A stretch of DNA of 64,000 nt from NCBI GenBank assembly GCA_018714345.1, contig DVNO01000021.1, positions 4,683 to 68,682 of the forward strand, given 5' to 3'. The stretch comes from Candidatus Enterousia avicola (GTDB lineage Bacteria; Pseudomonadota; Alphaproteobacteria; Rs-D84). Below the pieces are notes generated by a model that had not been told where the DNA came from, ran no database searches, and saw nothing but the letters and a program-made list of their open reading frames with translations. Positions 11,063-21,584 of this stretch are shown in pieces (position 1 is the first letter of the stretch; each line of letters opens with the position of its first letter). The position numbers were made by a program, and so were the translations under genes.

Positions 11063-11138
11063 GCCAGTTTAGCTCAGTTGGTAGAGCGGCTGATTTGTAA
11101 TCAGTAGGTCGTTGGTTCAAATCCGACAACTGGCACCA
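11063..11138 (+). tRNA. tRNA-Thr(UGU), complete, island-encoded
   Basis: 76-nt cloverleaf: acceptor gccagtt/aactggc, D-arm agctcagttggtagagc, anticodon stem gctga/tcagt with loop ttTGTaa, T-arm ggttcaaatcc, encoded CCA. Confidence 0.9.
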
Positions 11139-11143
11139 GGATT

Positions 11144-11167
11144 TCCGCGGACTTCGCGGATTTTTTT
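11144..11167 (+). terminator. rho-independent terminator of the island tRNA-Thr
   Basis: Hairpin tccgcg-gactt-cgcgga followed by ttttttt. Confidence 0.6.
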
Positions 11168-11267
11168 ATTTTTCATATTTTGGAAATACCACGATAAAAA
11201 TTGATTATTTTTACATGAAAAAAAGCATTCTTTTTACTGGTGCCGCAAATCAAACACGACAACCATA

Positions 11268-11275
11268 GGGGGGGG
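11268..11275. repeat. homopolymeric G8 tract
   Basis: ataGGGGGGGGtat in the 362-bp non-coding stretch between the island tRNA and the res stop. Confidence 0.9.
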
Positions 11276-11500
11276 TATAGGGTACGCCCCATAGATTTTT
11301 TAACCATCGGCACACCTGTCACACTGTCACGGGTAAATTGGATATGATGGGGTAAATAACAATGACCGCGACAGTCACATTGTCGTGGCCGACGTCAAAC
11401 AAAAATGATTTTATGCCACCGTCATACCATAAAACAGCAAAAACGCGCTGTCGGCCATTTGTCGCATTTTATAAACAGGTCGAAAAAAATTATAATACAA

Positions 11501-14440
11501 TCATTCAAACAATGCCCCCGTGGCACGCCCGCGTGTCAATCGGCAAAAATCTAATATTTCTTTTATCCCGGCATTTTTTTCGCGCCAATTGTAAAACATT
11601 TCATCAGTTAACAAAGAATACACCCACGTGGAATCCATCCTGTTATTTGGTGCCAATTCATTGATCTTTGATATCCAATCCATTGCGCCAATTTCTTTAC
11701 TTTTTACATCTGGATTTTTGGCCATGTTGCTGCCTTTGGTTTCAACAACATAAATATTATTTCCAATTTTCAATATAAAATCTGGATAATACGTGGCCAA
11801 CATTCCATCAGAACGTAAATATCTGAATCTTGCAAACAAATGCTTGTTTTCGTTAATTTTTATAATTCGTTCAACATGGGCATCTGCATCACAGGCCAGC
11901 AAGAAATCTCGTTCCAAGCCACCTTTGTTTGATGGATAAAAAGTTTTTTCATATATAGATTTCTTTATATCCAACGCATAATTTTCGCGCCCAATTAATT
12001 GTTTAATTTCGGAAAAATAACGTTTTTCAATAATGGCATCATGTACATCAATATTATTATGCATTTCATAAATTGCCTTTGATAATTCTGTCATCGTGTG
12101 TTTTATTATTTCTGTATTTGATAATAATAATACGCGCCAATTTCCATCCTGTAATGGATCAAATGGTTGACCAAATAATTTTGTACGGACAAATTTGTCT
12201 ATTGCAGATATCAACAAATTTTGGTCTATTTGCATCAGCGGCATTTCTGTTCTGTGTCCGTTTGATGCAACTTTTGCAAAATTAGATGTAATCGCCCGCA
12301 GCATTTTTTGCAAATATTCATTATATGATTTTGCATTAAATAAATCGCCACGAACCTTGTATTCGCCAAACTGGGTTTTTACTTGCATTTCTGTGCCGAC
12401 AAAGCGTTCTGCATTATCGTGTGGCACCATTTTCTTTAATTGTTCCAGATTCCATCCTGACAAAGGCTGCATATTATCCACAGAAATGATCGAACCATTG
12501 AGAGTTTCTTCACGTTCCTTGATAATTTGTGGCCAAAACATGTCATAATCTGCATAATTATTTTTTAATCCCACAGTTATCATATCCCCAACAGAACTGG
12601 CATCGGTTGGTCTGTCTTTTGTTTCGGAAACAACCAAACTGTTATCCAAATCTTCATAAAAATCTTTAAATGCAGGATGTTCCACAACAAATAAAGTATC
12701 AAGATAATTTAACGGTTCTCGTTTCAGGTCATATATATTATGTCTGTTGTCCGCTTTGATAGCATCATAATCACGGCCACGCCACATTAAACGCAGACCT
12801 CGTCCCAAAACCTGTTCCAACAAGATGGGCTCCTGGGTGGAACGCAACGGAACAATTACGCAAATATTGTTTACATCAAATCCCTCACGCAACATAAGAA
12901 CACTGACTACAACCTTAGGTTGTATTTGACTATCCAGATTGAACAAACGTTGCTTTAATGCGTTCCAATCAGCCGTTTTTAATTCACCCTTTTTATTTGA
13001 ATCTATTTGCATAATATCATCGGGTGCCAAACCTTCGGATTGTAGAAACTCACATACAAATGGTGATACATTTGTATCTTCACATATAACCATCATTTTT
13101 GGATGTTTTGTTGGATCATGTTTTACAAAATCTTCTTCTAAAATTTTTAATCGCGACAATCCGGCTCGCAACATCAATCGCTGGCCATCAGACAGGCCAA
13201 TTACTTTATTGCTGCTGTTGCGCACAGAACGAAATTCTATATCTGCATTTGCCAAACTGGCGATTTCTTTGCGTTCATCCAAAACAAATGTTTTAACAAG
13301 CCCTGTACGCATGGCAACAGATAATTCAAAATTAACAACAATATGCGAAAAATAATGTTTTACCTTATTTTTCTTGCTGCCGCTGGTATCGTATGGCGTT
13401 GCCGAGAAATCAATCTGTATAAAATTACTTTTTAATGCATTTGATAGAACGTTTAAAGATTTCTGCCATTCAACTTCGTGTATTACACCATAGGTTTTGT
13501 TTTCATGAATATGGTGCGCTTCATCATTGAATACACACAAATCGGGCAATCCAGATAAATATTCAAGTATTCCACCACGTAAAAATCTGTCATCCAATGC
13601 ATCTAATGAATTACCCGCCGAAATCCCTGGTGTCAATGGCAATAAATCATTCACAATATTTTTTGTGTCCGATAAATCAACCCCGTTTATATGTAAATCA
13701 TCTTCATTATCTTCATTTTTATCATCTGAATCAACCAACGCATGCCAATTGGTTATCGCAATCAAACCATCGCCAGTTGTTTTATGTCCGATTTCTGATT
13801 TATCTGCCACGGAATTTTGTACAAAAGAATAAATGTCCTGACGATATTTTTCGGGCAGGAATAAATCTTCATTCTTTTTTAAATCCGATGTTTCAAAATT
13901 TCTGACCCCAGGTTCTGTTTCTTTGCCCAAAAAGGCATCCAACAAGCGTTCATATACAATTAACCCAGGCGCAACCAATAAAAAATTTTTAGTATATTTG
14001 ACATCAGCACTTGTCGGCATATATTTTGAGTTCAAATATTGCCACACCATCAATGCGTTCAACACCCATGTTTTTCCGGTGCCGGTCGCCATTTTTATAC
14101 AATATTTGGTCAGATTATATTTATCGGCACACGTTATCCCTAAAAAATCGTTATCAACAAATGGTGTTGCGACAATTTGTCCGATTGCCGAATACATATC
14201 GGATACAGATTTTGATTTCAGAACTTCATGAACATATATTGTGTTCAAAATTGCCTGGCGTTGTCCGTCATGAAAATTTCTTTCACGAACATCACAAAAC
14301 ACAGGTTCAAACCAATATCGCAACAAATCCGCCGTTATCGGTGATACCGCGTTCAAAAACTGCCCAGATTCCCATTCTGCGTTCACAATGGACGATAATT
14401 CAGCCGCAAATTTTAATGGAATATCACGTGTGCCAATCAT
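11501..14440 (-). CDS. res: Type III restriction enzyme Res subunit (SF2 helicase plus C-terminal PD-(D/E)xK nuclease)
   Basis: Walker A MATGTGKTW, DEAH box VFNDEAHHI, motif VI-like QVLGRGLRL and a C-terminal nuclease-like YYPDFILKIGNNIYVVETKG. I prefer the start at Met9 (14440), which forms an ATGA overlap with the upstream ORF stop. The longest ORF starts at 14464. Confidence 0.85.
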   Translation of the reverse strand: MIGTRDIPLKFAAELSSIVNAEWESGQFLNAVSPITADLLRYWFEPVFCDVRERNFHDGQRQAILNTIYVHEVLKSKSVSDMYSAIGQIVATPFVDNDFLGITCADKYNLTKYCIKMATGTGKTWVLNALMVWQYLNSKYMPTSADVKYTKNFLLVAPGLIVYERLLDAFLGKETEPGVRNFETSDLKKNEDLFLPEKYRQDIYSFVQNSVADKSEIGHKTTGDGLIAITNWHALVDSDDKNEDNEDDLHINGVDLSDTKNIVNDLLPLTPGISAGNSLDALDDRFLRGGILEYLSGLPDLCVFNDEAHHIHENKTYGVIHEVEWQKSLNVLSNALKSNFIQIDFSATPYDTSGSKKNKVKHYFSHIVVNFELSVAMRTGLVKTFVLDERKEIASLANADIEFRSVRNSSNKVIGLSDGQRLMLRAGLSRLKILEEDFVKHDPTKHPKMMVICEDTNVSPFVCEFLQSEGLAPDDIMQIDSNKKGELKTADWNALKQRLFNLDSQIQPKVVVSVLMLREGFDVNNICVIVPLRSTQEPILLEQVLGRGLRLMWRGRDYDAIKADNRHNIYDLKREPLNYLDTLFVVEHPAFKDFYEDLDNSLVVSETKDRPTDASSVGDMITVGLKNNYADYDMFWPQIIKEREETLNGSIISVDNMQPLSGWNLEQLKKMVPHDNAERFVGTEMQVKTQFGEYKVRGDLFNAKSYNEYLQKMLRAITSNFAKVASNGHRTEMPLMQIDQNLLISAIDKFVRTKLFGQPFDPLQDGNWRVLLLSNTEIIKHTMTELSKAIYEMHNNIDVHDAIIEKRYFSEIKQLIGRENYALDIKKSIYEKTFYPSNKGGLERDFLLACDADAHVERIIKINENKHLFARFRYLRSDGMLATYYPDFILKIGNNIYVVETKGSNMAKNPDVKSKEIGAMDWISKINELAPNNRMDSTWVYSLLTDEMFYNWREKNAGIKEILDFCRLTRGRATGALFE

Positions 14441-15054
14441 GTTATTTTCCTTTTTTGTTGCCATTTTGTGCGTTTCCCCAGAACGGCGTTCATATTTCTA
14501 CGAATAGTTTCAAATGTATAATTTAACTCCATCATTACCGAACTGTTTTCATAACCATAAATAATTTGTTCGCATTCTTGACATTGCTGTACGGGCGTGT
14601 TTTCTGTTTGGTTATACAATGTGTCACAAGCCTGCTGAATGCGTTGACATATTTTCATAATAGCATCAAACGACTTTATAGATTCTTCTCCCCAATAAAT
14701 CGCAACCTTGTTCCGCAAATTAAAAAAGATTTTAAATTTATCTTTATTTTGTTCCATACGAAATAACGGGATTAATATATCAATGCGTTTTGTATTTATC
14801 GGCAAAGCACGTTCCTGATAATATTTTAATGCACTTTTTCGCTCTGTATTGTTTCTACTTGGCGAACAAATAAATTTGAACAAATCTTCTATCTCTAATA
14901 CCCCAGCTAAAACTTCACCAGCCACATCCATTTTTGCTTTGGTTAATGTTGAGGATTTCCATTTAAATGCCACATATGCGGCCACCCCAGTAAAAAACGC
15001 CATTGATACATTACAAACAATATTTATATTATCAGGTGTAATAATTTCACACAT
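14437..15054 (-). CDS. hypothetical 205-aa protein with N-terminal TM helix, embedded between mod and res
   Basis: The ORF starts 5 nt after the mod stop (RBS gaggtg 8 nt upstream) and its TGA overlaps the res ATG (ATGA). One hydrophobic helix (VSMAFFTGVAAYVAFKW). I recognise no motif. Confidence 0.6.
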   Translation of the reverse strand: MCEIITPDNINIVCNVSMAFFTGVAAYVAFKWKSSTLTKAKMDVAGEVLAGVLEIEDLFKFICSPSRNNTERKSALKYYQERALPINTKRIDILIPLFRMEQNKDKFKIFFNLRNKVAIYWGEESIKSFDAIMKICQRIQQACDTLYNQTENTPVQQCQECEQIIYGYENSSVMMELNYTFETIRRNMNAVLGKRTKWQQKRKIT

Positions 15055-15059
15055 AATAC

Positions 15060-17054
15060 CTACACCTCTATAATTGCCTGGGATTCAAAACCGAACACAT
15101 CAACCGCCTTGACGCAAATTGTGCGTTTGCCGGGAACCTTATCCACAATCAATTCGGCGGAATGTGTCACACGCAATTCATCGCTGTCGTTGGCGGTGTT
15201 TTCACGATAATCTTGCCATACACTGCGAAATGTATGCCCGTCATAATCCGGATCAATTGACCAATATTCAATTAAATCAAATGGCTTTTCTGCCATAATA
15301 TTTTGAACCACTGCTTTACTGTCGTCATCCAATGGCAAACAATCCGGTGACAGTAAAACATAATTATCCAATTCGATAACCAGTTTTTCTTTGCCATCTT
15401 GGTTGGCTGATAAAACACGTGGCTGTTTCAAAGTCAAATATTGCAGCGATGTAAAACGTATTTTTTGATTGTTTACCCAATCGCGATAATCCTTTTTGCG
15501 CAGCATATCCAGCAAATCTGGTGGAATAACCAAAACTTCTATTTCATTTTTAGGTAATTTTGATAATTTATCGCCAATATCAAATGAAAAATTCCACCCC
15601 AAAACAATAACCTTTTTCCACCCACCCATAAAAGATTCACGCAGTTCCATTGCACGCTTTATCGTGCCGGCATTTGTTATCTTGTTTGGACTGTCAACAA
15701 TTACCAGTGTTCTGGTGTCCCGCATATAACCAATATTCGTTGGCGCATCGGCATTATCAAATGGCAATGCACCATATAAACGCATTACCACACGCGCCAA
15801 ATCGGATACACGTTTGTATTGCCGGTCGGATAAAAATGCCTCGCGCGAATAATCACCAATGGAATGGTACAGGAATGGTTTGCAATTGGGGATATCAATC
15901 AACCGTTTGCGCATAATCATAACAGATGGTTTGCCAATATCGGATGTTATCCATCGCCGACCCAATTTTTCCGCCACCGCCGCCGTGGTACCCGACCCAC
16001 CAAAGAAATCCGCCACAATGGAGTTTTTATTGGACGCTATTTCTATAAGCATTTGTGCCAACCCCTCTGGTTTTTGTGTTGCATACCCAACGCGTTCTGA
16101 TGATAAATTTAATACTGGACGCATATTATATTGTTCAATACCAGCGTCTTTAACTATCCATGGGGCACCTTCAAATACGTCTCTTAATATAGTATCCACA
16201 TAATACCTGCCTTTTTCATCTTGTTTTGACCCCATAAAAGGTTTTTCTAAGTATTGACGTTCAATTTGACTGTTTAACGAAAAAGAAGCTGTTTGTTTGC
16301 AATAAAATAGAATTGTGTCATGTTTTCTTGGTAATGCCCCATTTCGTGAGGCGCCCCCACTCCTGTACGACCAAACAATCTCATTCACAAAGTTATTCTT
16401 ACCAAAAATATCATCCATTATTACTTTTACATAATGGCCGGCGTGCCAATCGCAATGCACATAAATTGAACCTTGGTCGGACAATAATTCACGCATTAAA
16501 CACAGGCGTGGATACAGCATTTTCAAATATGATACCGTGCCATCCGCCCATGTATCGGAATACGCAAACTGCTCCAACACCGTTGGTTTTTGTTCGATGT
16601 CACCATTTGGTAAGTTTATTTTTGTTCTGTAATCTGCCTTGGAATCAAATGGTGGGTCAATATAGATTAAATCAATTTTGCCGCGCATACTTGGCAATCC
16701 AGTGGCAGGGTCGCCGCTTAACAATGCCTGCATTGCAAACAGGTTATCACCATGAATTAAACGGTTAAACCAACCGTCTGTATCGCATGAATTCATGTTA
16801 TCCGGTGGGCAACATGCACGAATTTCACCGCGAAACAAACCACTTTCATCACGTGCCGGCAAAACATATTCATTCGTTTGCAGCATCATTTTATTATCTG
16901 ACTGCGCACGTGCCAAAATACGTTCCACTTCTTTTTTACCCTGTGCCACGATTTCCGGCAACATGTCTATCAATGACTTCGGCATCATTACCCCCGTTTT
17001 TGCAAACAAAAAACCGCCAACGGGATAATGGCGGTCGGGGAGTTCATAAATCAC
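15060..17054 (-). CDS. mod: Type III-like DNA methyltransferase Mod subunit (beta-class N6A/N4C)
   Basis: Motif [11 protein letters not shown] precedes motif [25 protein letters not shown] (beta-class order). A further about 290 aa follow motif I at the C-terminus. An alternative start at Met23 (16988) is possible. Confidence 0.85.
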
Positions 17055-17289
17055 CTAAAAGATAGATCCCGCCAGTTTTCGGGAAACCCTATTTTATATA
17101 CTGACGGCTCCCCGACCAAACTGGTGGGGACTACAATAAAAGACGCTTTCGCGCCCTATTGGCGGATACAGCATTATTATTAATGCCGCTTTTAGGTAGG
17201 CTTATGACGGCCCCGAATCCAATTCCCATTGAATTCAACATACATTTTACACCAAATTTTCCAAAAATCAAATACCCGAGGATACGGGT

Positions 17290-17299
17290 GGGGGGGGGG
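17290..17299. repeat. homopolymeric G10 tract (C10 on the mod strand)
   Basis: cgggtGGGGGGGGGGatatg, 236 nt upstream of the longest mod ORF start, in the 387-bp intergenic region. Confidence 0.9.
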
Positions 17300-17391
17300 A
17301 TATGTTTAATATACGCCCGTCATGTGGTGGTTTATATCACAATATATACAGGTGTTGGGATCAGGCGGACGAATATGGGTGGGGGATAATG

Positions 17392-17428
17392 CCAAAACAT
17401 CGGCTGCACCGGATAACTGGCACAGCCG
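17392..17428 (-). terminator. possible terminator after the DUF3631-like gene
   Basis: Hairpin cggctg..cagccg (17401..17428). On the minus strand it is followed by atgtttt. The T-run is weak. Confidence 0.35.
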
Positions 17429-17441
17429 ACCAACATAACAC

Positions 17442-18878
17442 TTAATACGGAATATCCGGCAAATCCGAAATGTCATCGTCTGATAGTTCCGTCACACTAT
17501 TTTCGGCAAAAAATTGTTCTGCCCGTTTAAAGGCGACATTAAGTGTGTCGTCATTGTTGCCTTTGGCATCCGGCGTATCAGGATTATTGGTTTGCACTAG
17601 TGCGGATTCGGATGCATCATCTGCTGAATCCGTGACCCCGTTACACGCCACGCTAGACGCGTCCTGTGTTGTCACGGGGTCACATACAATTTGGGGTACA
17701 TAGCGTTCAAAGGCATCTGTAAATGCCGCGCGTGCATATCCGCGTTTTATTTTGTTGCCGATGCGGACCTGTTGGGGTCTGATATCAAAATCCCGCAGCA
17801 TACCAGCCAAGGTTATACTGGTTAACACCATTTTCCCATATTCTTTATCTGCCCATGGACGGGTTTCAAATTGATACAAGTGCCTTAATAATTCATCTGT
17901 TGCCAAGAAATCTGCACCCGTGTTTTCAAAAACCTGACTAATATCCGCCAATAATTGAATCGGTCGGGTTTCAACATCATCCGACATGGGACATAAACGC
18001 GCCGCAGCATGTGCTAATTCAGATACCAAATCAGGCGATATATGGTGCGCGATTGCGAATAATGGTTCCCAAATATCTGCCTTGCGACCATTCAGAAAAT
18101 TTGGCACATCTGGGAATATTTCGGATATCGCATTAACATTGTCCATCATATACCGCATACACATGCTTTGCAATTGTGTGGTCTGTGGCTTTACTAGACG
18201 CTCGCGCAGCTTTTCAACGCATCTGTCATGCGGACCAGCACGCCGCATAACAATGGTGATACTGCGATCCATTATTGTTGCGTCTCGGTTTCCAATGCCT
18301 GCAATTGCCATTGCACCATAACAATCAAATGTCTTGGTGGCATAATCATTTTTAGTTGCAATGGTACGCAATACTTTGCCGCCACGCTTATATCCTGCAT
18401 TCACAATTCCACGGATTTCATTATTTCCGTTAATATAGGTATCCGCCTCATCTATTAACAGCGTTGGATGCCAAGCCGCGATAGTGCGAAATATTCCGGA
18501 CGCGGTTATGCTGGATATATTTACAGGACTATATGTGGTCAATTCCAACAATTGCAACAACTGTGTTTTACCACATTGTGGGGCCGCAGATTTAATACAC
18601 AGACGTGGCGAATAATCAAATGCATTAACAGCATATGTATGCAACGCCCAGAAGGCCAAAACAATTGATGCCCCATCCGGCAAAACCAAATATCGTTCGT
18701 ATAGAGCACGCAATTTCTGGACCAATTCCAGCCCGTTCACGGGCTCATCCCAGGCATCCAGCATGGGTATGCCGGAATCTGGTTGATTTTTAGTTTCAGG
18801 ACGGTTAAAATAACCTTGAACATTTGGGGAATTAGTGGATGCCGCCGCCACAGTTCCCTTTTCTTTTTGCTCTACCAT
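17442..18878 (-). CDS. DUF3631-like P-loop protein (island replication/mobilisation candidate)
   Basis: 478 aa with Walker A-like APQCGKTQLL, Walker B-like TLLIDEADTYI and IVNAGYKRGG. From memory this resembles DUF3631 proteins of integrative elements and satellites. Acidic C-terminal tail. The start overlaps the upstream stop (TAATG). Confidence 0.55.
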   Translation of the reverse strand: MVEQKEKGTVAAASTNSPNVQGYFNRPETKNQPDSGIPMLDAWDEPVNGLELVQKLRALYERYLVLPDGASIVLAFWALHTYAVNAFDYSPRLCIKSAAPQCGKTQLLQLLELTTYSPVNISSITASGIFRTIAAWHPTLLIDEADTYINGNNEIRGIVNAGYKRGGKVLRTIATKNDYATKTFDCYGAMAIAGIGNRDATIMDRSITIVMRRAGPHDRCVEKLRERLVKPQTTQLQSMCMRYMMDNVNAISEIFPDVPNFLNGRKADIWEPLFAIAHHISPDLVSELAHAAARLCPMSDDVETRPIQLLADISQVFENTGADFLATDELLRHLYQFETRPWADKEYGKMVLTSITLAGMLRDFDIRPQQVRIGNKIKRGYARAAFTDAFERYVPQIVCDPVTTQDASSVACNGVTDSADDASESALVQTNNPDTPDAKGNNDDTLNVAFKRAEQFFAENSVTELSDDDISDLPDIPY

Positions 18879-19117
18879 TATTTACCTCCTTTGATTCTAC
18901 CGGTTGAACTGGGATTGGTTGCGACCCATTCAAAGAATTTGATTTCATCAATCAAAATCTTTGCACCGACCCGATGGATAACTTCCATATCGTTCAGCCC
19001 GTTAAACGGCGCATGGAAGATTAAATCCCGCAGCGACCCGACTGGGAACGCTGGGTGCTTTTTCGCGAATTGCGGCACGGTTAAGTACCGTGGAACATCT
19101 GGGTTAAAAACTGCCAT
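18878..19117 (-). CDS. small HTH DNA-binding protein, excisionase/AlpA-like (putative RDF)
   Basis: 79 aa with an HTH-like segment LTVPQFAKKHPAFPVGSLRDLIF. Its position (upstream of the replication-like gene, in an integrase island) is typical of Xis/AlpA. Confidence 0.5.
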   Translation of the reverse strand: MAVFNPDVPRYLTVPQFAKKHPAFPVGSLRDLIFHAPFNGLNDMEVIHRVGAKILIDEIKFFEWVATNPSSTGRIKGGK

Positions 19118-19266
19118 TTTTCACTCCTGTTTTTAAATTATTGAGTTTCAAGAGACATCGTTGTCGTCTATTGAATAATACAAATATAGGATTTGGCAGT
19201 GCTTAAAGCATCCTAGTTAGCGAAAACGCTTTTTAACGCCTACGATGCGCAAAAATCTGGGATTTT

Positions 19267-20118
19267 TTATTTAAAACCTTTTTTGAAACGCAAAATATTT
19301 TGACCGCGTTCCAACTTTAAACGCTTAACAAATTCGCTGGCTTTTTGGGGGCTGAGGCCAAAATCAGTCCTGATACGATCTTTTAATTGCAGAATACTAC
19401 TACAATCATCATATCTGCCACGATCATATTCATCAACGAACCATTTATATAATTCATCAAAATTCGTGTTTTTTTGGCGATGTTTGCCAGTTGCCTGATG
19501 ATGTGCGCGCGTTTCGATTTCATTTTTTGTTAAAACATGTAAAAATTCATTTGTCAGTATTCTTATTTGTTTAACAGAAACGCACGATACGGCCAATTCG
19601 CGGCAAATATACAACACTAGCGCAGAATAAAGAACTTCGGGATAAATCGGATTCTTTGACTCGATAAATTCAAAATCCTTTTTAAAAAATCTGCGTAAAT
19701 ATACTTTTAAACTTTTGGGAATCCATGTTGGCGACAAATCCGACATGCGCACACTGGTTGAATTTTTAATGTATGGTTCTGATTGTCGATGTTTATTAAT
19801 CAATTCTTCTGGCAAATGTTTGCGACATCCCATTTGCAAGATTGCACGCGATAGATACGGAAAGACTGTTATTGTATTGATATTAGCAATATCATCGGGA
19901 AATTCTGATTCTATTAAATAAAAACAACCCCTCAATAACTTATTTAATTTTATTATTTCCGAACGGGAAATGCTTGTATAGTCCTCTCTGCCAAACAATA
20001 TTCGGAAAGATAAGGACAATAATTTGCTGTAATACCGTTTATTATCCTGACAAAACACACCGCCCGAGGCAAAATCTGATTGTCGCAGTGGTGTATATTT
20101 AATCTGCACCATTGTCAC
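19267..20118 (-). CDS. hypothetical protein coupled to the integrase gene
   Basis: 283-aa ORF whose start overlaps the integrase 3' end by 20 nt. No motif recognised. Confidence 0.5.
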   Translation of the reverse strand: MTMVQIKYTPLRQSDFASGGVFCQDNKRYYSKLLSLSFRILFGREDYTSISRSEIIKLNKLLRGCFYLIESEFPDDIANINTITVFPYLSRAILQMGCRKHLPEELINKHRQSEPYIKNSTSVRMSDLSPTWIPKSLKVYLRRFFKKDFEFIESKNPIYPEVLYSALVLYICRELAVSCVSVKQIRILTNEFLHVLTKNEIETRAHHQATGKHRQKNTNFDELYKWFVDEYDRGRYDDCSSILQLKDRIRTDFGLSPQKASEFVKRLKLERGQNILRFKKGFK

Positions 20119-21166
20119 CCCCGAATATTTTTGCGTTCATGCTGGCAACGACACTGCTTTTATGCGCATCAGACAGGTGTGCATATCGCCGCACCATTGA
20201 CAATGTTTTATGCCCCAATACCGCCGCAATTTCATTGGGCGTTGCGCCATTCATGGCCAAATAACTGGCACAAGTATGCCGCAAATCATGAAAACGAAAA
20301 TCCGATAAGCCTGCCCGCTTGACCGCAGTGTTCCAACTGCGTTTTATGTCACATGGACCAGAATTGTTTTCATTTGGAAACACCCAAACATCTGATTTGC
20401 GGTTGTTATACAAATTACGCATTAACCCCAGCGCAGGCCCCGTTATAGGTACCCCACGCATTTCGCCATTTTTTGTATGTTCCAACACTGCCCAACCGCT
20501 TTTTAAGTCAACATCAGACCATTTTAGTGATAACAGTTCCATACGCCGCGCACCTGTTGAAATTGCCAAAATAATAATTGTATAAAGCGATTTATTACGC
20601 GATTCTTTGGCTGCATCCAGCAACCGTTCGCGTTCAATATCACTTAAATAACGAACGCGACCCCTGTTTTCGCGTTTGTGTTCAACACGCGACACCGGAT
20701 TAATATCAAGCCACCCCAATGATTTAACGCCATAGGATAACGCGCAACTGAGTGCCGCCAGATACCGATTTAATGTTGCAGGGCTTTTGGTCCGGCCACC
20801 ATACTTTATTTTTGCAATTTGGTTTAATGTGTGTGTTATAATGGCGGATGTCAATGAATGCAGTTTTACACCCTCAATAAATTTACGCCATTCTTCCAGT
20901 TGAAACTTTATATTACGCGCAGACCGCAATTCACATTCTGCCAAATGCGTTTCATATTCGTCAAACAATTCGCCGACAGTGCGGTTATATGCAGTCAAAT
21001 CAGGAATATGCTTTTGGTCACGCAATTCGTTTTCTGTTTTAATTGCCCATTCACGCGCCAATGTTTTACTGGAAAATGTGGCTGTGCGGATAAGGTTGCC
21101 CTCTACCCGAACACGCGCCCGATACTTGAAACCGTCTTTTGTCCTGCGTTTTTCAAAAGTTGCCAT
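20099..21166 (-). CDS. int: tyrosine recombinase / phage-type integrase
   Basis: 355 aa with catalytic residues in order: TGARRMEL (Arg), HDLRHTCAS (HxxR), LGH, RRYAH (Tyr). N-terminal SAM-like/arm-binding region. Confidence 0.92.
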   Translation of the reverse strand: MATFEKRRTKDGFKYRARVRVEGNLIRTATFSSKTLAREWAIKTENELRDQKHIPDLTAYNRTVGELFDEYETHLAECELRSARNIKFQLEEWRKFIEGVKLHSLTSAIITHTLNQIAKIKYGGRTKSPATLNRYLAALSCALSYGVKSLGWLDINPVSRVEHKRENRGRVRYLSDIERERLLDAAKESRNKSLYTIIILAISTGARRMELLSLKWSDVDLKSGWAVLEHTKNGEMRGVPITGPALGLMRNLYNNRKSDVWVFPNENNSGPCDIKRSWNTAVKRAGLSDFRFHDLRHTCASYLAMNGATPNEIAAVLGHKTLSMVRRYAHLSDAHKSSVVASMNAKIFGGDNGAD

Positions 21167-21302
21167 CTGTTGAATCCTGTTTTTCAGAGATAATACAACA
21201 ACTTACAGCAAATGTCAAAAACATACAACAGATTCACAATCTGTGGGACGGTATATAAAAAATACAATAAAATCAATAGGATACGCTTTTATAATATTGA
21301 AA

Positions 21303-21322
21303 ATGGTCCAAATTTGGTCCAG
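21303..21322. repeat. 20-bp motif atggtccaaatttggtccag (partner of 10893..10912)
   Basis: Exact inverted copy of the left-end motif, lying between int and attR. Additional tggac(a/c) half-sites follow at about 21366 and about 21437. Confidence 0.75.
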
Positions 21323-21530
21323 TTGTCTAAAATCAACATATAAAAATACTCGGAATTCTGACTGTTTGGACACAAAATCCACACACACAAATTATGTATA
21401 AATTTATTGCAAAGTATTGTAAAAAATGTCCCAGAAATGGACAGAACACATCAAAAAATGACAGAAATAACGCATAAAAACGCGACAAAACAGGGATTAA
21501 TCAAGGCACCAAATTGAGCCAATGTCAATG

Positions 21531-21575
21531 TTTGTAATCAGAGGGTCGTTGGTTCAAGTCCGACAACTGGCACCA
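21531..21575 (+). pseudogene. 3' half of chromosomal tRNA-Thr(UGU) (attR side)
   Basis: tttgtaatcagagggtcgttggttcaagtccgacaactggcacca comprises the anticodon loop/3' stem tcaga, variable loop, T-arm, acceptor 3' strand and CCA. It is complementary to the 5' half at 10738..10778. Confidence 0.85.
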
Positions 21576-21584
21576 GAATAAAAA

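Follow-up and report, generated by a model that had tools for sequence, protein, structure and literature searches.

Why does a gene for a small, predicted membrane protein lie between mod and res, the two genes of a restriction-modification (R-M) system of Type III? The question is raised by a stretch of 64,000 nt from Candidatus Enterousia avicola (contig DVNO01000021.1, assembly GCA_018714345.1), the whole of which we call the window, where an open reading frame (ORF) of 205 amino acids (aa), labelled ORF-X or simply X, separates the two genes. An initial annotation had proposed the trio as an undescribed three-gene system with X as a stoichiometric or regulatory third component. We favour another answer, namely that X is an accessory cassette for defence, embedded in the operon but optional, and probably works as a membrane effector or sensor; we give this reading a probability of about 0.55. 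That X is an optional embedded cassette and not a subunit is highly probable; that it is specifically a defence effector or sensor has somewhat less than an even chance.

Anatomy of the mod-X-res operon

ORF calls placed mod, X and res as three co-directional, tightly coupled ORFs on the minus strand of the window:

15060..16988 (longest ORF to a GTG at 17054), minus strand, mod, N6/N4 DNA methyltransferase of Type III (beta class), probably 642 aa
15063..15068, minus strand, GAGGTG Shine-Dalgarno-like hexamer in the final codons of mod and 8 nt upstream of the X ATG
14437..15054, minus strand, X, 618 nt, predicted 205-aa single-pass membrane protein of an unannotated family, probable embedded cassette
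14437..14440, minus strand, ATGA overlap of the X stop (TGA, 14439-14437) and the res start (ATG, 14440-14438)
11501..14440 (longest ORF to 14464), minus strand, res, Type III restriction subunit, 979 aa

The mod stop codon (TAG, 15062-15060) is separated by 5 nt from the X ATG at 15054. The cassette fills exactly the junction between the mod stop and the res start, and translational coupling is kept on both sides. The gene order, the 5-nt gap, the gaggtg ribosome-binding site and the ATGA overlap had all been described correctly in the initial annotation, as had the res start: a longer in-frame ATG for res is present at 14464 and is not conserved among relatives, in which conservation (M[IT]G[TP]RDIP) sets in at the second ATG, indicating that res likely starts at 14440. 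Alignments of Mod homologues begin at residue 23/24 of the long ORF, and the ATG at 16988 is preceded by GGGGG, suggesting that Mod is probably ~642 aa; the span to 17054 given earlier for mod is correct as the longest ORF, and the likely start lies at 16988.

Judging from its insertion position, X is translated from the mRNA of the R-M operon, and it would be co-expressed with Mod and Res. The junctions are too short to house promoters or terminators, and a promoter and terminator scan returned promoter-like sites at chance level (29 found, 26 expected), none of them interpretable at the junctions. The GC content of X is 33.5% (29% at third codon positions, GC3), compared with 41% (GC3 38%) for mod and 36% (GC3 31.5%) for res. 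The integrase and DUF3631 genes of the island that carries the operon have 44-45% GC, and X is nearer to res than to these.

The mod/res junction is a variable slot

Three independent mod-X-res units were found, namely that of the window together with locus L017, that of L001 and that of L075/L076, with X 41-65% and Res 60-82% identical. L001 carries a 65%-identical X orthologue in the same arrangement. L075/L076 carry the nearest outgroup X (~41% identical), again between mod and res; the mobile element is a different one here and has serine recombinases. When L075 is compared with the window, identity is 41% for X, 63% for Mod and 60% for Res, i.e., the three diverge in parallel, and in a Res tree built by neighbour joining the systems with X bracket a single subclade. 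Long-term co-inheritance of X with Mod and Res would fit this pattern. The initial annotation had made its proposal depend on X homologues recurring between mod and res and on a conserved linkage of X to these genes, and both were observed in the three units.

When genomes were scanned with Res, 31 loci were recovered, in which Res is 45-98% identical; they belong to gut Alphaproteobacteria, Bacteroidales, Methanobacterium, Aurantimicrobium, Betaproteobacteria and Acidobacteriota. Mod lies directly upstream of Res in every one of these loci whose flank is present. In ~24 of the 31, the mod stop abuts or overlaps the res start and there is no middle gene; X was found only in L017, which is essentially the island of the window, and in L001. 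The junction of L018 reads TAA-AG-ATG without an insert, and L020 and L022 are also empty. In L019, L021 and L023, the junction holds an unrelated 125-129-aa protein with two to three transmembrane (TM) helices (Y) and a 47-58-aa ORF (Z), which overlaps Y and is rich in Pro and Lys, with SP[DN]VPK..LKP repeats:

L019, 6489-6999, Y+Z cassette at the same mod/res junction
L021, 6435-6978, Y+Z cassette at the same mod/res junction
L023, 6435-6978, Y+Z cassette at the same mod/res junction

Neither Y nor Z matched Pfam, and Y, which alone was scanned against PHROGs, gave no match there. Y and Z could be a toxin/antitoxin-like or an effector pair.

Homology is lost precisely where mod stops and regained where res starts, and the flanks are 88-93% identical DNA. 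Res of L001 (with X) is 96.7% identical to that of L018 (empty), and Res of L021 (with Y) is 99.1% identical to that of L022 (empty). Near-identical Res genes therefore carry X, Y+Z or an empty junction, indicating that X is optional and that cassette turnover is recent. Since the R-M genes remain intact in near-identical relatives lacking X, X appears to be dispensable for the enzyme.

Of the three genes, X evolves fastest. The window and L017 differ at 0 of 618 nt in X, compared with 32 of 1950 in mod and 58 of 2940 in res (1.6-2%). A recent transfer of X was considered for this pair and little was made of it, as X lies within a broader low-divergence block at ~13000-15250. This block, which spans the 5' half of res and X, may be a recent recombination tract or may have arisen by chance.

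X belongs to a conserved family of predicted membrane proteins

Comparison of X with its 65%-identical orthologue P0002 gave pN 0.215 and pS 0.70 (dN/dS, the ratio of nonsynonymous to synonymous divergence, ~0.12). An exhaustive HMMER search of 1.8 billion representatives recovered a family of 91 cluster representatives at E <= 1e-3, nearly all of them 195-230 aa long and matched end to end. These values indicate that X is not a chance ORF and is under purifying selection; the lack of protein-level conservation that would have counted against the initial annotation is therefore not seen.

In the family alignment, a hydrophobic helix at the N-terminus is followed by an invariant Trp and a basic motif (W[RK]xE.IGKKKIELA), and then by several conserved helices. 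The corresponding layout has a short N-terminus on the outside, a single membrane helix, a juxtamembrane stretch rich in Lys/Arg, for which the motif is the consensus, and ~170 aa of helical bundle in the cytoplasm. The N-terminal TM helix noticed in the initial annotation (~aa 10-31, nt 15027-14962) proved to be conserved family-wide: a single hydrophobic segment was present across 40 members, flanked by 0.7 Lys/Arg residues on the N side and 4.0 on the C side, from which an N-out/C-in topology with a cytoplasmic helical domain is predicted. The second-strongest 19-residue window averages only 0.90 on the Kyte-Doolittle scale, which together with the lack of a Pfam match places X outside the SLATT/2TM class of membrane effectors, whose core is made of two TM helices. 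An AlphaFold2 model built from a 29-sequence alignment was confident and all helical (pLDDT, the predicted local distance difference test, 80.7; pTM, the predicted template modelling score, 0.70), with one long helix at residues 7-62 followed by the bundle.

No motif had been nameable in X initially, and the searches agree: X matched nothing in NCBIfam, PHROG, Pfam or PADLOC, 40 members had no match in Pfam or PADLOC, and the family profile matched only apolipoprotein-like low-complexity helices in PDB. Foldseek with the X model found nothing at E < 0.001 in PDB or BFVD. Its best neighbours were generic four-helix bundles and two uncharacterised phage proteins, one of these weak neighbours coming from the HP1 int-cI moron region; we claim no homology. 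Walker motifs were not visible in the alignment. Searches of phage and plasmid collections with X and a central family member gave no tblastn match, and an IMG/VR scan gave one partial match. A YqgU match in 1 of the 40 members (E = 0.0011, below cutoff) was treated as noise. The Cys-containing QQCQECEQ segment to which the initial annotation had drawn attention reads QQRQEYEQ in the orthologue, and a metal site was ruled out because the cysteines are not conserved.

Genomic contexts of the X family

The proteins of the X family were clustered at 80% identity, and contexts were assigned manually to the resulting 27 clusters. In ~16 of the ~23 informative clusters (~70%), R-M genes are immediately adjacent, and 13 of these ~16 are nested in an R-M operon. 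Judging from these neighbourhoods, the X family is an optional cassette with a strong preference for R-M loci. X is nested co-directionally in a complete host system in the window, L001, L075/L076 and the Type I loci L003-L014 and L065-L069, and its optionality is apparent from the empty or alternative slots and from homologues in Type II, retron reverse transcriptase (RT) and TIR contexts.

In Type I operons, distant members (19-30% identical) occupy the position between hsdM and hsdS, where stop and start codons often overlap. In L066 and L069, hsdM-X-hsdS overlaps at both ends, just as mod-X-res does, and in L065-L069 X directly follows the methyltransferase gene. The cargo around Type I-embedded X includes Fic/RhuM, NTase_sub_bind, Thoeris ThsA/ThsB, PemK and AAA_15/21. 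In L011-L014, related gut bacteria share one chromosomal Type I operon, which lies downstream of DUF2207 and gyrB genes; its cargo, drawn from the genes just listed, differs between them and sits between hsdM, hsdS and hsdR, and the operon acts as a hot spot for defence cargo.

A metagenome scan found other members beside Type II systems, namely a C5 methyltransferase with an N6/N4 methyltransferase and an HNH restriction endonuclease, a Tsp45I endonuclease with its methyltransferase, and Eco57I-like or Type IIG-like enzymes. On small tRNA-Asn islands (L051-L060, e.g., L055:4297-10862), X is 82-87% identical at the nucleotide level and the neighbouring R-M cargo is wholly different. These islands share a conserved ORF of ~75 aa (MKYKHFREIEPSNKTDF...), and X is their constant part, the Type II R-M genes (HNH, Tsp45I, Eco57I-like) being variable.

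In L049:327-1966 and L050:6714-8639, the stop codon of a type VI retron RT (PADLOC RT_VI, 1e-74) overlaps the start of an X homologue. These loci may be retrons with an X-type membrane effector. A 106-aa ORF (MLGNTLRLL...) precedes the RT in L050, where the small helix-turn-helix (HTH) protein of type VI would be expected, and phage-like S-adenosylmethionine synthetase and ParB-N6/N4 methyltransferase genes follow. In L078:7135-8627 (Mesorhizobium sp., GCA_040323735.1), a DUF1883-TIR gene (286 aa) lies 6 nt upstream of an X homologue (208 aa), which makes this a candidate two-gene pair of a TIR and a membrane protein. L077, an integrative element without R-M genes, and L062, in a non-defence neighbourhood, have no clear R-M link.

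The host system is a Type III R-M pair

Type III enzymes are Mod2Res complexes, in which ATP-dependent cleavage needs two inversely oriented unmethylated sites and Mod hemimethylates. In the Mod of the window, DPPF (residue 111, nt 16658) precedes FGGSGTT (residue 329, nt 16004; 642-aa numbering), which is the beta-class order. Mod matched PF01555 in Pfam (1.8e-39) and PADLOC MTase_III PDLC03633 (1.4e-81) over residues 87-664, i.e., to the last residue, and a profile of the 13-member Mod family matched EcoP15I Mod (4zcf) in a PDB profile search (6e-27). Res has the superfamily 2 (SF2) helicase motifs GTGKT (residue 120, nt 14083) and DEAH (residue 306, nt 13525), followed by a C-terminal PD...ExK nuclease motif, YPDF...VETKG (residues 885-901, nt 11785-11737). 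It matched PF04851 (ResIII, 8e-13), PADLOC REase_III (2e-20) and the NCBIfam BPTD_3080-family restriction endonuclease (1.6e-54, below the cutoff of that family); profile support for the nuclease domain was weak (RE_endonuc PF19778, E = 0.025). The beta-class order and the GTGKT, DEAH and PD-(D/E)xK-like motifs reported initially were thus located at mapped positions.

The pair therefore combines a beta-class, EcoP15I-related Mod with a Res made of an N-terminal SF2 helicase/ATPase and a C-terminal PD-(D/E)xK domain. The two-gene mod-res arrangement holds family-wide (~24 of 31 loci); in the window it is interrupted by X, yet it remains co-directional and coupled. From these sequence features, the mod-res pair of the window is a canonical Type III R-M pair. 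A stretch of mod (nt 685-970, ~aa 229-323 of the long ORF) could not be aligned with the 75%-identical orthologue in L001, and we infer that it is the target-recognition domain, which is expected there.

The C-terminal domain of Mod (~300 aa; window 15060-15980, residues ~360-664 of the long ORF) had been set down initially as a region of about 290 aa that was unaccounted for. It is a conserved family feature, spanned by PADLOC MTase_III, and not an anomaly of this locus: the alignment shows many invariant columns across bacteria and archaea, with blocks invariant from Alphaproteobacteria to Methanobacterium. The domain had no Pfam or PDB match, and its single-sequence structure model (pLDDT 41.8) was unusable.

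Proposed role of X and alternative explanations

We propose that X would provide a second, independent defence layer beside restriction. It would act as a membrane-anchored sensor/effector of the abortive-infection type, either autonomous or set free by an attack on the R-M layer, for which RonA in Ronin and PrrC in EcoprrI provide the analogy. The cytoplasmic bundle would sense a phage cue or an R-M-derived cue, and the TM helix would oligomerise and compromise the membrane. Among the roles that the initial annotation had listed for X, an abortive-infection effector is the most plausible. A membrane effector or sensor fits because the same junction alternatively holds the unrelated membrane protein Y, and because X homologues take effector-like positions after a retron RT and a TIR gene. 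The additional defence layer is suggested by published precedents, namely embedded defence genes, RonA, PrrC and TgvAB.

We consider it very unlikely that X is a true third subunit or dedicated regulator that binds Mod2Res stoichiometrically and is needed for restriction, methylation or assembly. The tight translational coupling on both sides of X would suit such a subunit, as would the mod-X-res order kept in three lineages with X diverging in parallel to Mod and Res, the position of X directly after the methyltransferase gene of the Type I loci L065-L069, and the existence of other Type III variants with a third gene (PMC8259958). However, ~24 of the 31 related systems have two genes, and Res proteins that are 96.7-99.1% identical occur without X or with an unrelated cassette while mod and res are intact; the three-gene system of the initial annotation fails on the same evidence. 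Homologues of X are also found with R-M systems of Types I and II, with a retron RT, with a TIR gene or in places that have no R-M system, and X evolves faster than either of its neighbours. It is quite unlikely that X serves R-M systems as a generic auxiliary, for example as a membrane tether that puts restriction complexes close to DNA-entry sites, or as a moderator of restriction in establishment or restriction alleviation upon entry of the mobile island into a new host, although about 70% of its informative contexts are immediately beside R-M genes of Types I, II and III, X stays constant on the tRNA-Asn islands while the R-M cargo changes, and the predicted cytoplasmic domain is a helical bundle of a protein-interaction-like kind. 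All Type III examples lie on mobile elements, where control of establishment matters. One small protein would nevertheless have to recognise unrelated HNH, Tsp45I-like, Type IIG, HsdMS/R and Mod2Res enzymes, the retron RT, TIR and non-R-M contexts do not fit, and no DNA-binding or regulatory motif was found in X.

Mobile-element cargo unlinked to restriction is an unlikely explanation as well; X would then be a membrane protein that serves the island, e.g., in entry or superinfection exclusion or as an addiction toxin, or a neutral hitchhiker. The hitchhiker variant has its own rationale, in which X lands in operon junctions where insertions are tolerated and expressed. The junction indeed takes the unrelated Y+Z and empties readily, the GC and GC3 contents of X are below those of mod, some members sit on an integrative element without R-M genes (L077) or in a non-defence neighbourhood (L062), and the weak structural neighbours include uncharacterised phage proteins, among them the one from the HP1 moron region. 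Purifying selection and retention of the same slot over Res divergence down to 60% identity speak against cargo of this kind, as does its repeated nesting specifically in R-M operons, of two different types, where start and stop codons overlap. The embedded defence cassette that we prefer also has observations weighing against it. No recognisable catalytic or pore-forming motif was found by alignment or by the family and fold searches, the family is nearly absent from phage and plasmid collections, and the retron and TIR associations come from one lineage each. L062, L077 and L048 have no obvious defence neighbours, and the context sample is dominated by gut and rumen metagenomes, so the frequency of R-M linkage may be biased. 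Near-identical X proteins occur beside unrelated Type II enzymes, which disfavours a specific 'guard' interface between X and R-M proteins and favours autonomy. We hold it rather doubtful that the X family is a widespread and hitherto unrecognised class of membrane-anchored 'restriction guard' effectors, with the cytoplasmic helical bundle monitoring the state of a co-encoded immune module that targets nucleic acids. Such guards would watch Type I, II or III R-M enzymes, a retron RT or a TIR protein, and phage inhibition or activation of these would trigger membrane-based abortive infection. If that were true, the logic of Ronin and PrrC would extend to Type III systems, and the mod/res junction would be a dedicated docking slot for membrane effectors, X or Y+Z, that can replace one another.

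Comparison with known systems

RonA, of the decoy/abortive system Ronin, is a single-TM effector of ~61 aa encoded beside hsdMS; it is toxic by itself and neutralised by HsdMS, which keeps it caged until anti-restriction proteins release it (bioRxiv 10.1101/2023.04.06.535777). The Type III system EcoR22I is also coupled to cell death (Silas et al., bioRxiv 10.1101/2023.04.06.535777). Like X, RonA is a small protein with one predicted TM helix whose gene lies tight against R-M methylase/specificity genes, and the logic proposed for X would be similar: a membrane effector that is silent beside an R-M module and freed upon attack on restriction. Unlike X, RonA (61 aa) has no large cytoplasmic domain and pairs with hsdMS lacking hsdR, whereas X has 205 aa and a helical domain of ~170 aa and lies within complete Type I or Type III systems or beside Type II systems. 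Judged by the description of RonA, not by its sequence, X falls outside Ronin in size and in its nuclease-containing R-M context.

PrrC, in the Type Ic EcoprrI operon, is described as a nested accessory that restriction does not need and that serves as an abortive-infection backup. X resembles it as an accessory gene nested between R-M genes, predicted to be co-expressed with them and apparently dispensable for restriction. PrrC, however, is a soluble ABC-ATPase/anticodon nuclease, whereas X is predicted to be membrane-anchored, has no ATPase or nuclease motifs and gave no PADLOC match; the ABC-type ATPase N-domain and anticodon-nuclease C-domain that define PrrC/RloC are absent from X.

According to Payne et al. 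(bioRxiv 10.1101/2024.01.29.577857), most of the genes found embedded in defence operons are themselves defence genes. The HEC/PDC candidates of that guilt-by-embedding survey come from Hma, BREX, DISARM and Type I R-M operons, Type III hosts being outside the survey (10.1101/2024.01.29.577857). X shares with these candidates co-directional nesting in multi-gene defence operons and the occurrence of both embedded and non-embedded homologues. It matched no PADLOC v2.0.0 model and may be among the 145 later PDCs. TgvAB, inside a Type I operon of V. cholerae, is a further embedded example (PMC11411939).

Three-gene Type III variants with an extra SF2 helicase-like ATPase gene 5' of mod occur in >500 genomes (Murray et al. 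2021, PMC8259958). As in the X units, an extra gene is linked to a mod-res pair, and that gene is not needed for cleavage in vitro. It encodes a large soluble ATPase upstream of mod, whereas X, a small predicted membrane protein, is encoded between the two genes and occurs in a minority of one subclade. In the type VI retrons described so far, the partner is a small HTH protein (Mestre et al. 2020, PMC7736814), and clade 3 retron RTs are known to pair with membrane effectors, the type IV effector being 2TM (PMC7736814). The X homologues at the stop codon of the type VI (clade 3) RT in L049/L050 are in an effector-like position. X differs from the type IV effector in having one TM helix and not two, the association is confined to one lineage, and the window has no RT. 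Retron effectors are encoded in a tripartite unit with a retron RT and its non-coding RNA; neither of these was found near X in the window, which leaves X there outside the retron effectors.

Novelty and implications

Accessory genes embedded in R-M operons are already known, mainly from Type I. The X family, its presence at the Type III mod/res junction and the exchange of cassettes at that junction appear to be new. If X is a defence effector, it would add a new single-gene, membrane-acting family to the prokaryotic immune repertoire, and Type III operons would join Type I, BREX, DISARM and Hma in hosting embedded second-line defences, here at a sharply delimited junction where cassettes are exchanged. 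Since the family is found with every type of R-M system, with a retron RT and with a TIR protein, it is a candidate for an effector or sensor module of general use. Should X prove inert, what remains is a Type III system of the ordinary kind that sits on a tRNA-Thr island and has a hitchhiker among its genes. The natural near-isogenic set, with X, an unrelated membrane cassette or an empty junction beside Res proteins that are 97-99% identical, makes the question directly testable.

A second unannotated family upstream of X

Some X genes are directly preceded by p, a second unannotated family of 170-205 aa, which has an N-terminal TM helix followed by WQG..Q..QHNL.L.E.R..FW. A paralogous relationship between p and X was rejected (hhalign probability 9%). 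The following p genes lie directly upstream of X with a 4-nt overlap:

L004, 5197-5814, p
L006, 3909-4424, p
L009, 7444-8004, p
L015, 7468-8004, p

In L015/L016, the p-X pair is near a Type II system. The p gene is missing from most X loci and was found in gut Type I operons and in one non-embedded locus.

The tRNA-Thr island

The operon rides on a 10.4-kb integrative island (window 11094-21576) at tRNA-Thr(TGT). Besides mod, X and res, its features are:

11063-11138, plus strand, tRNA-Thr(TGT), with its 3' half (11094-11139) as attL
17442-18878, minus strand, DUF3631 protein (Pfam, 4.6e-36)
18878-19117, minus strand, 79-aa ORF
19267-20118, minus strand, 283-aa ORF, no family match
20099-21166, minus strand, tyrosine integrase (Phage_integrase, 6.7e-34; PHROG integrase, 1e-69)
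21531..21576, plus strand, attR, 46-nt imperfect direct repeat of 11094-11139 (43/46 identical) that copies part of the 3' end of tRNA-Thr

Apart from tRNA, no RNA family was found in the window, and a near-identity DNA search of the island against plasmids matched only the tRNA. The closest record is the contig CASFOK010000001.1 (L017), a metagenome-assembled genome contig from an uncultured gut proteobacterium, which carries the same island.

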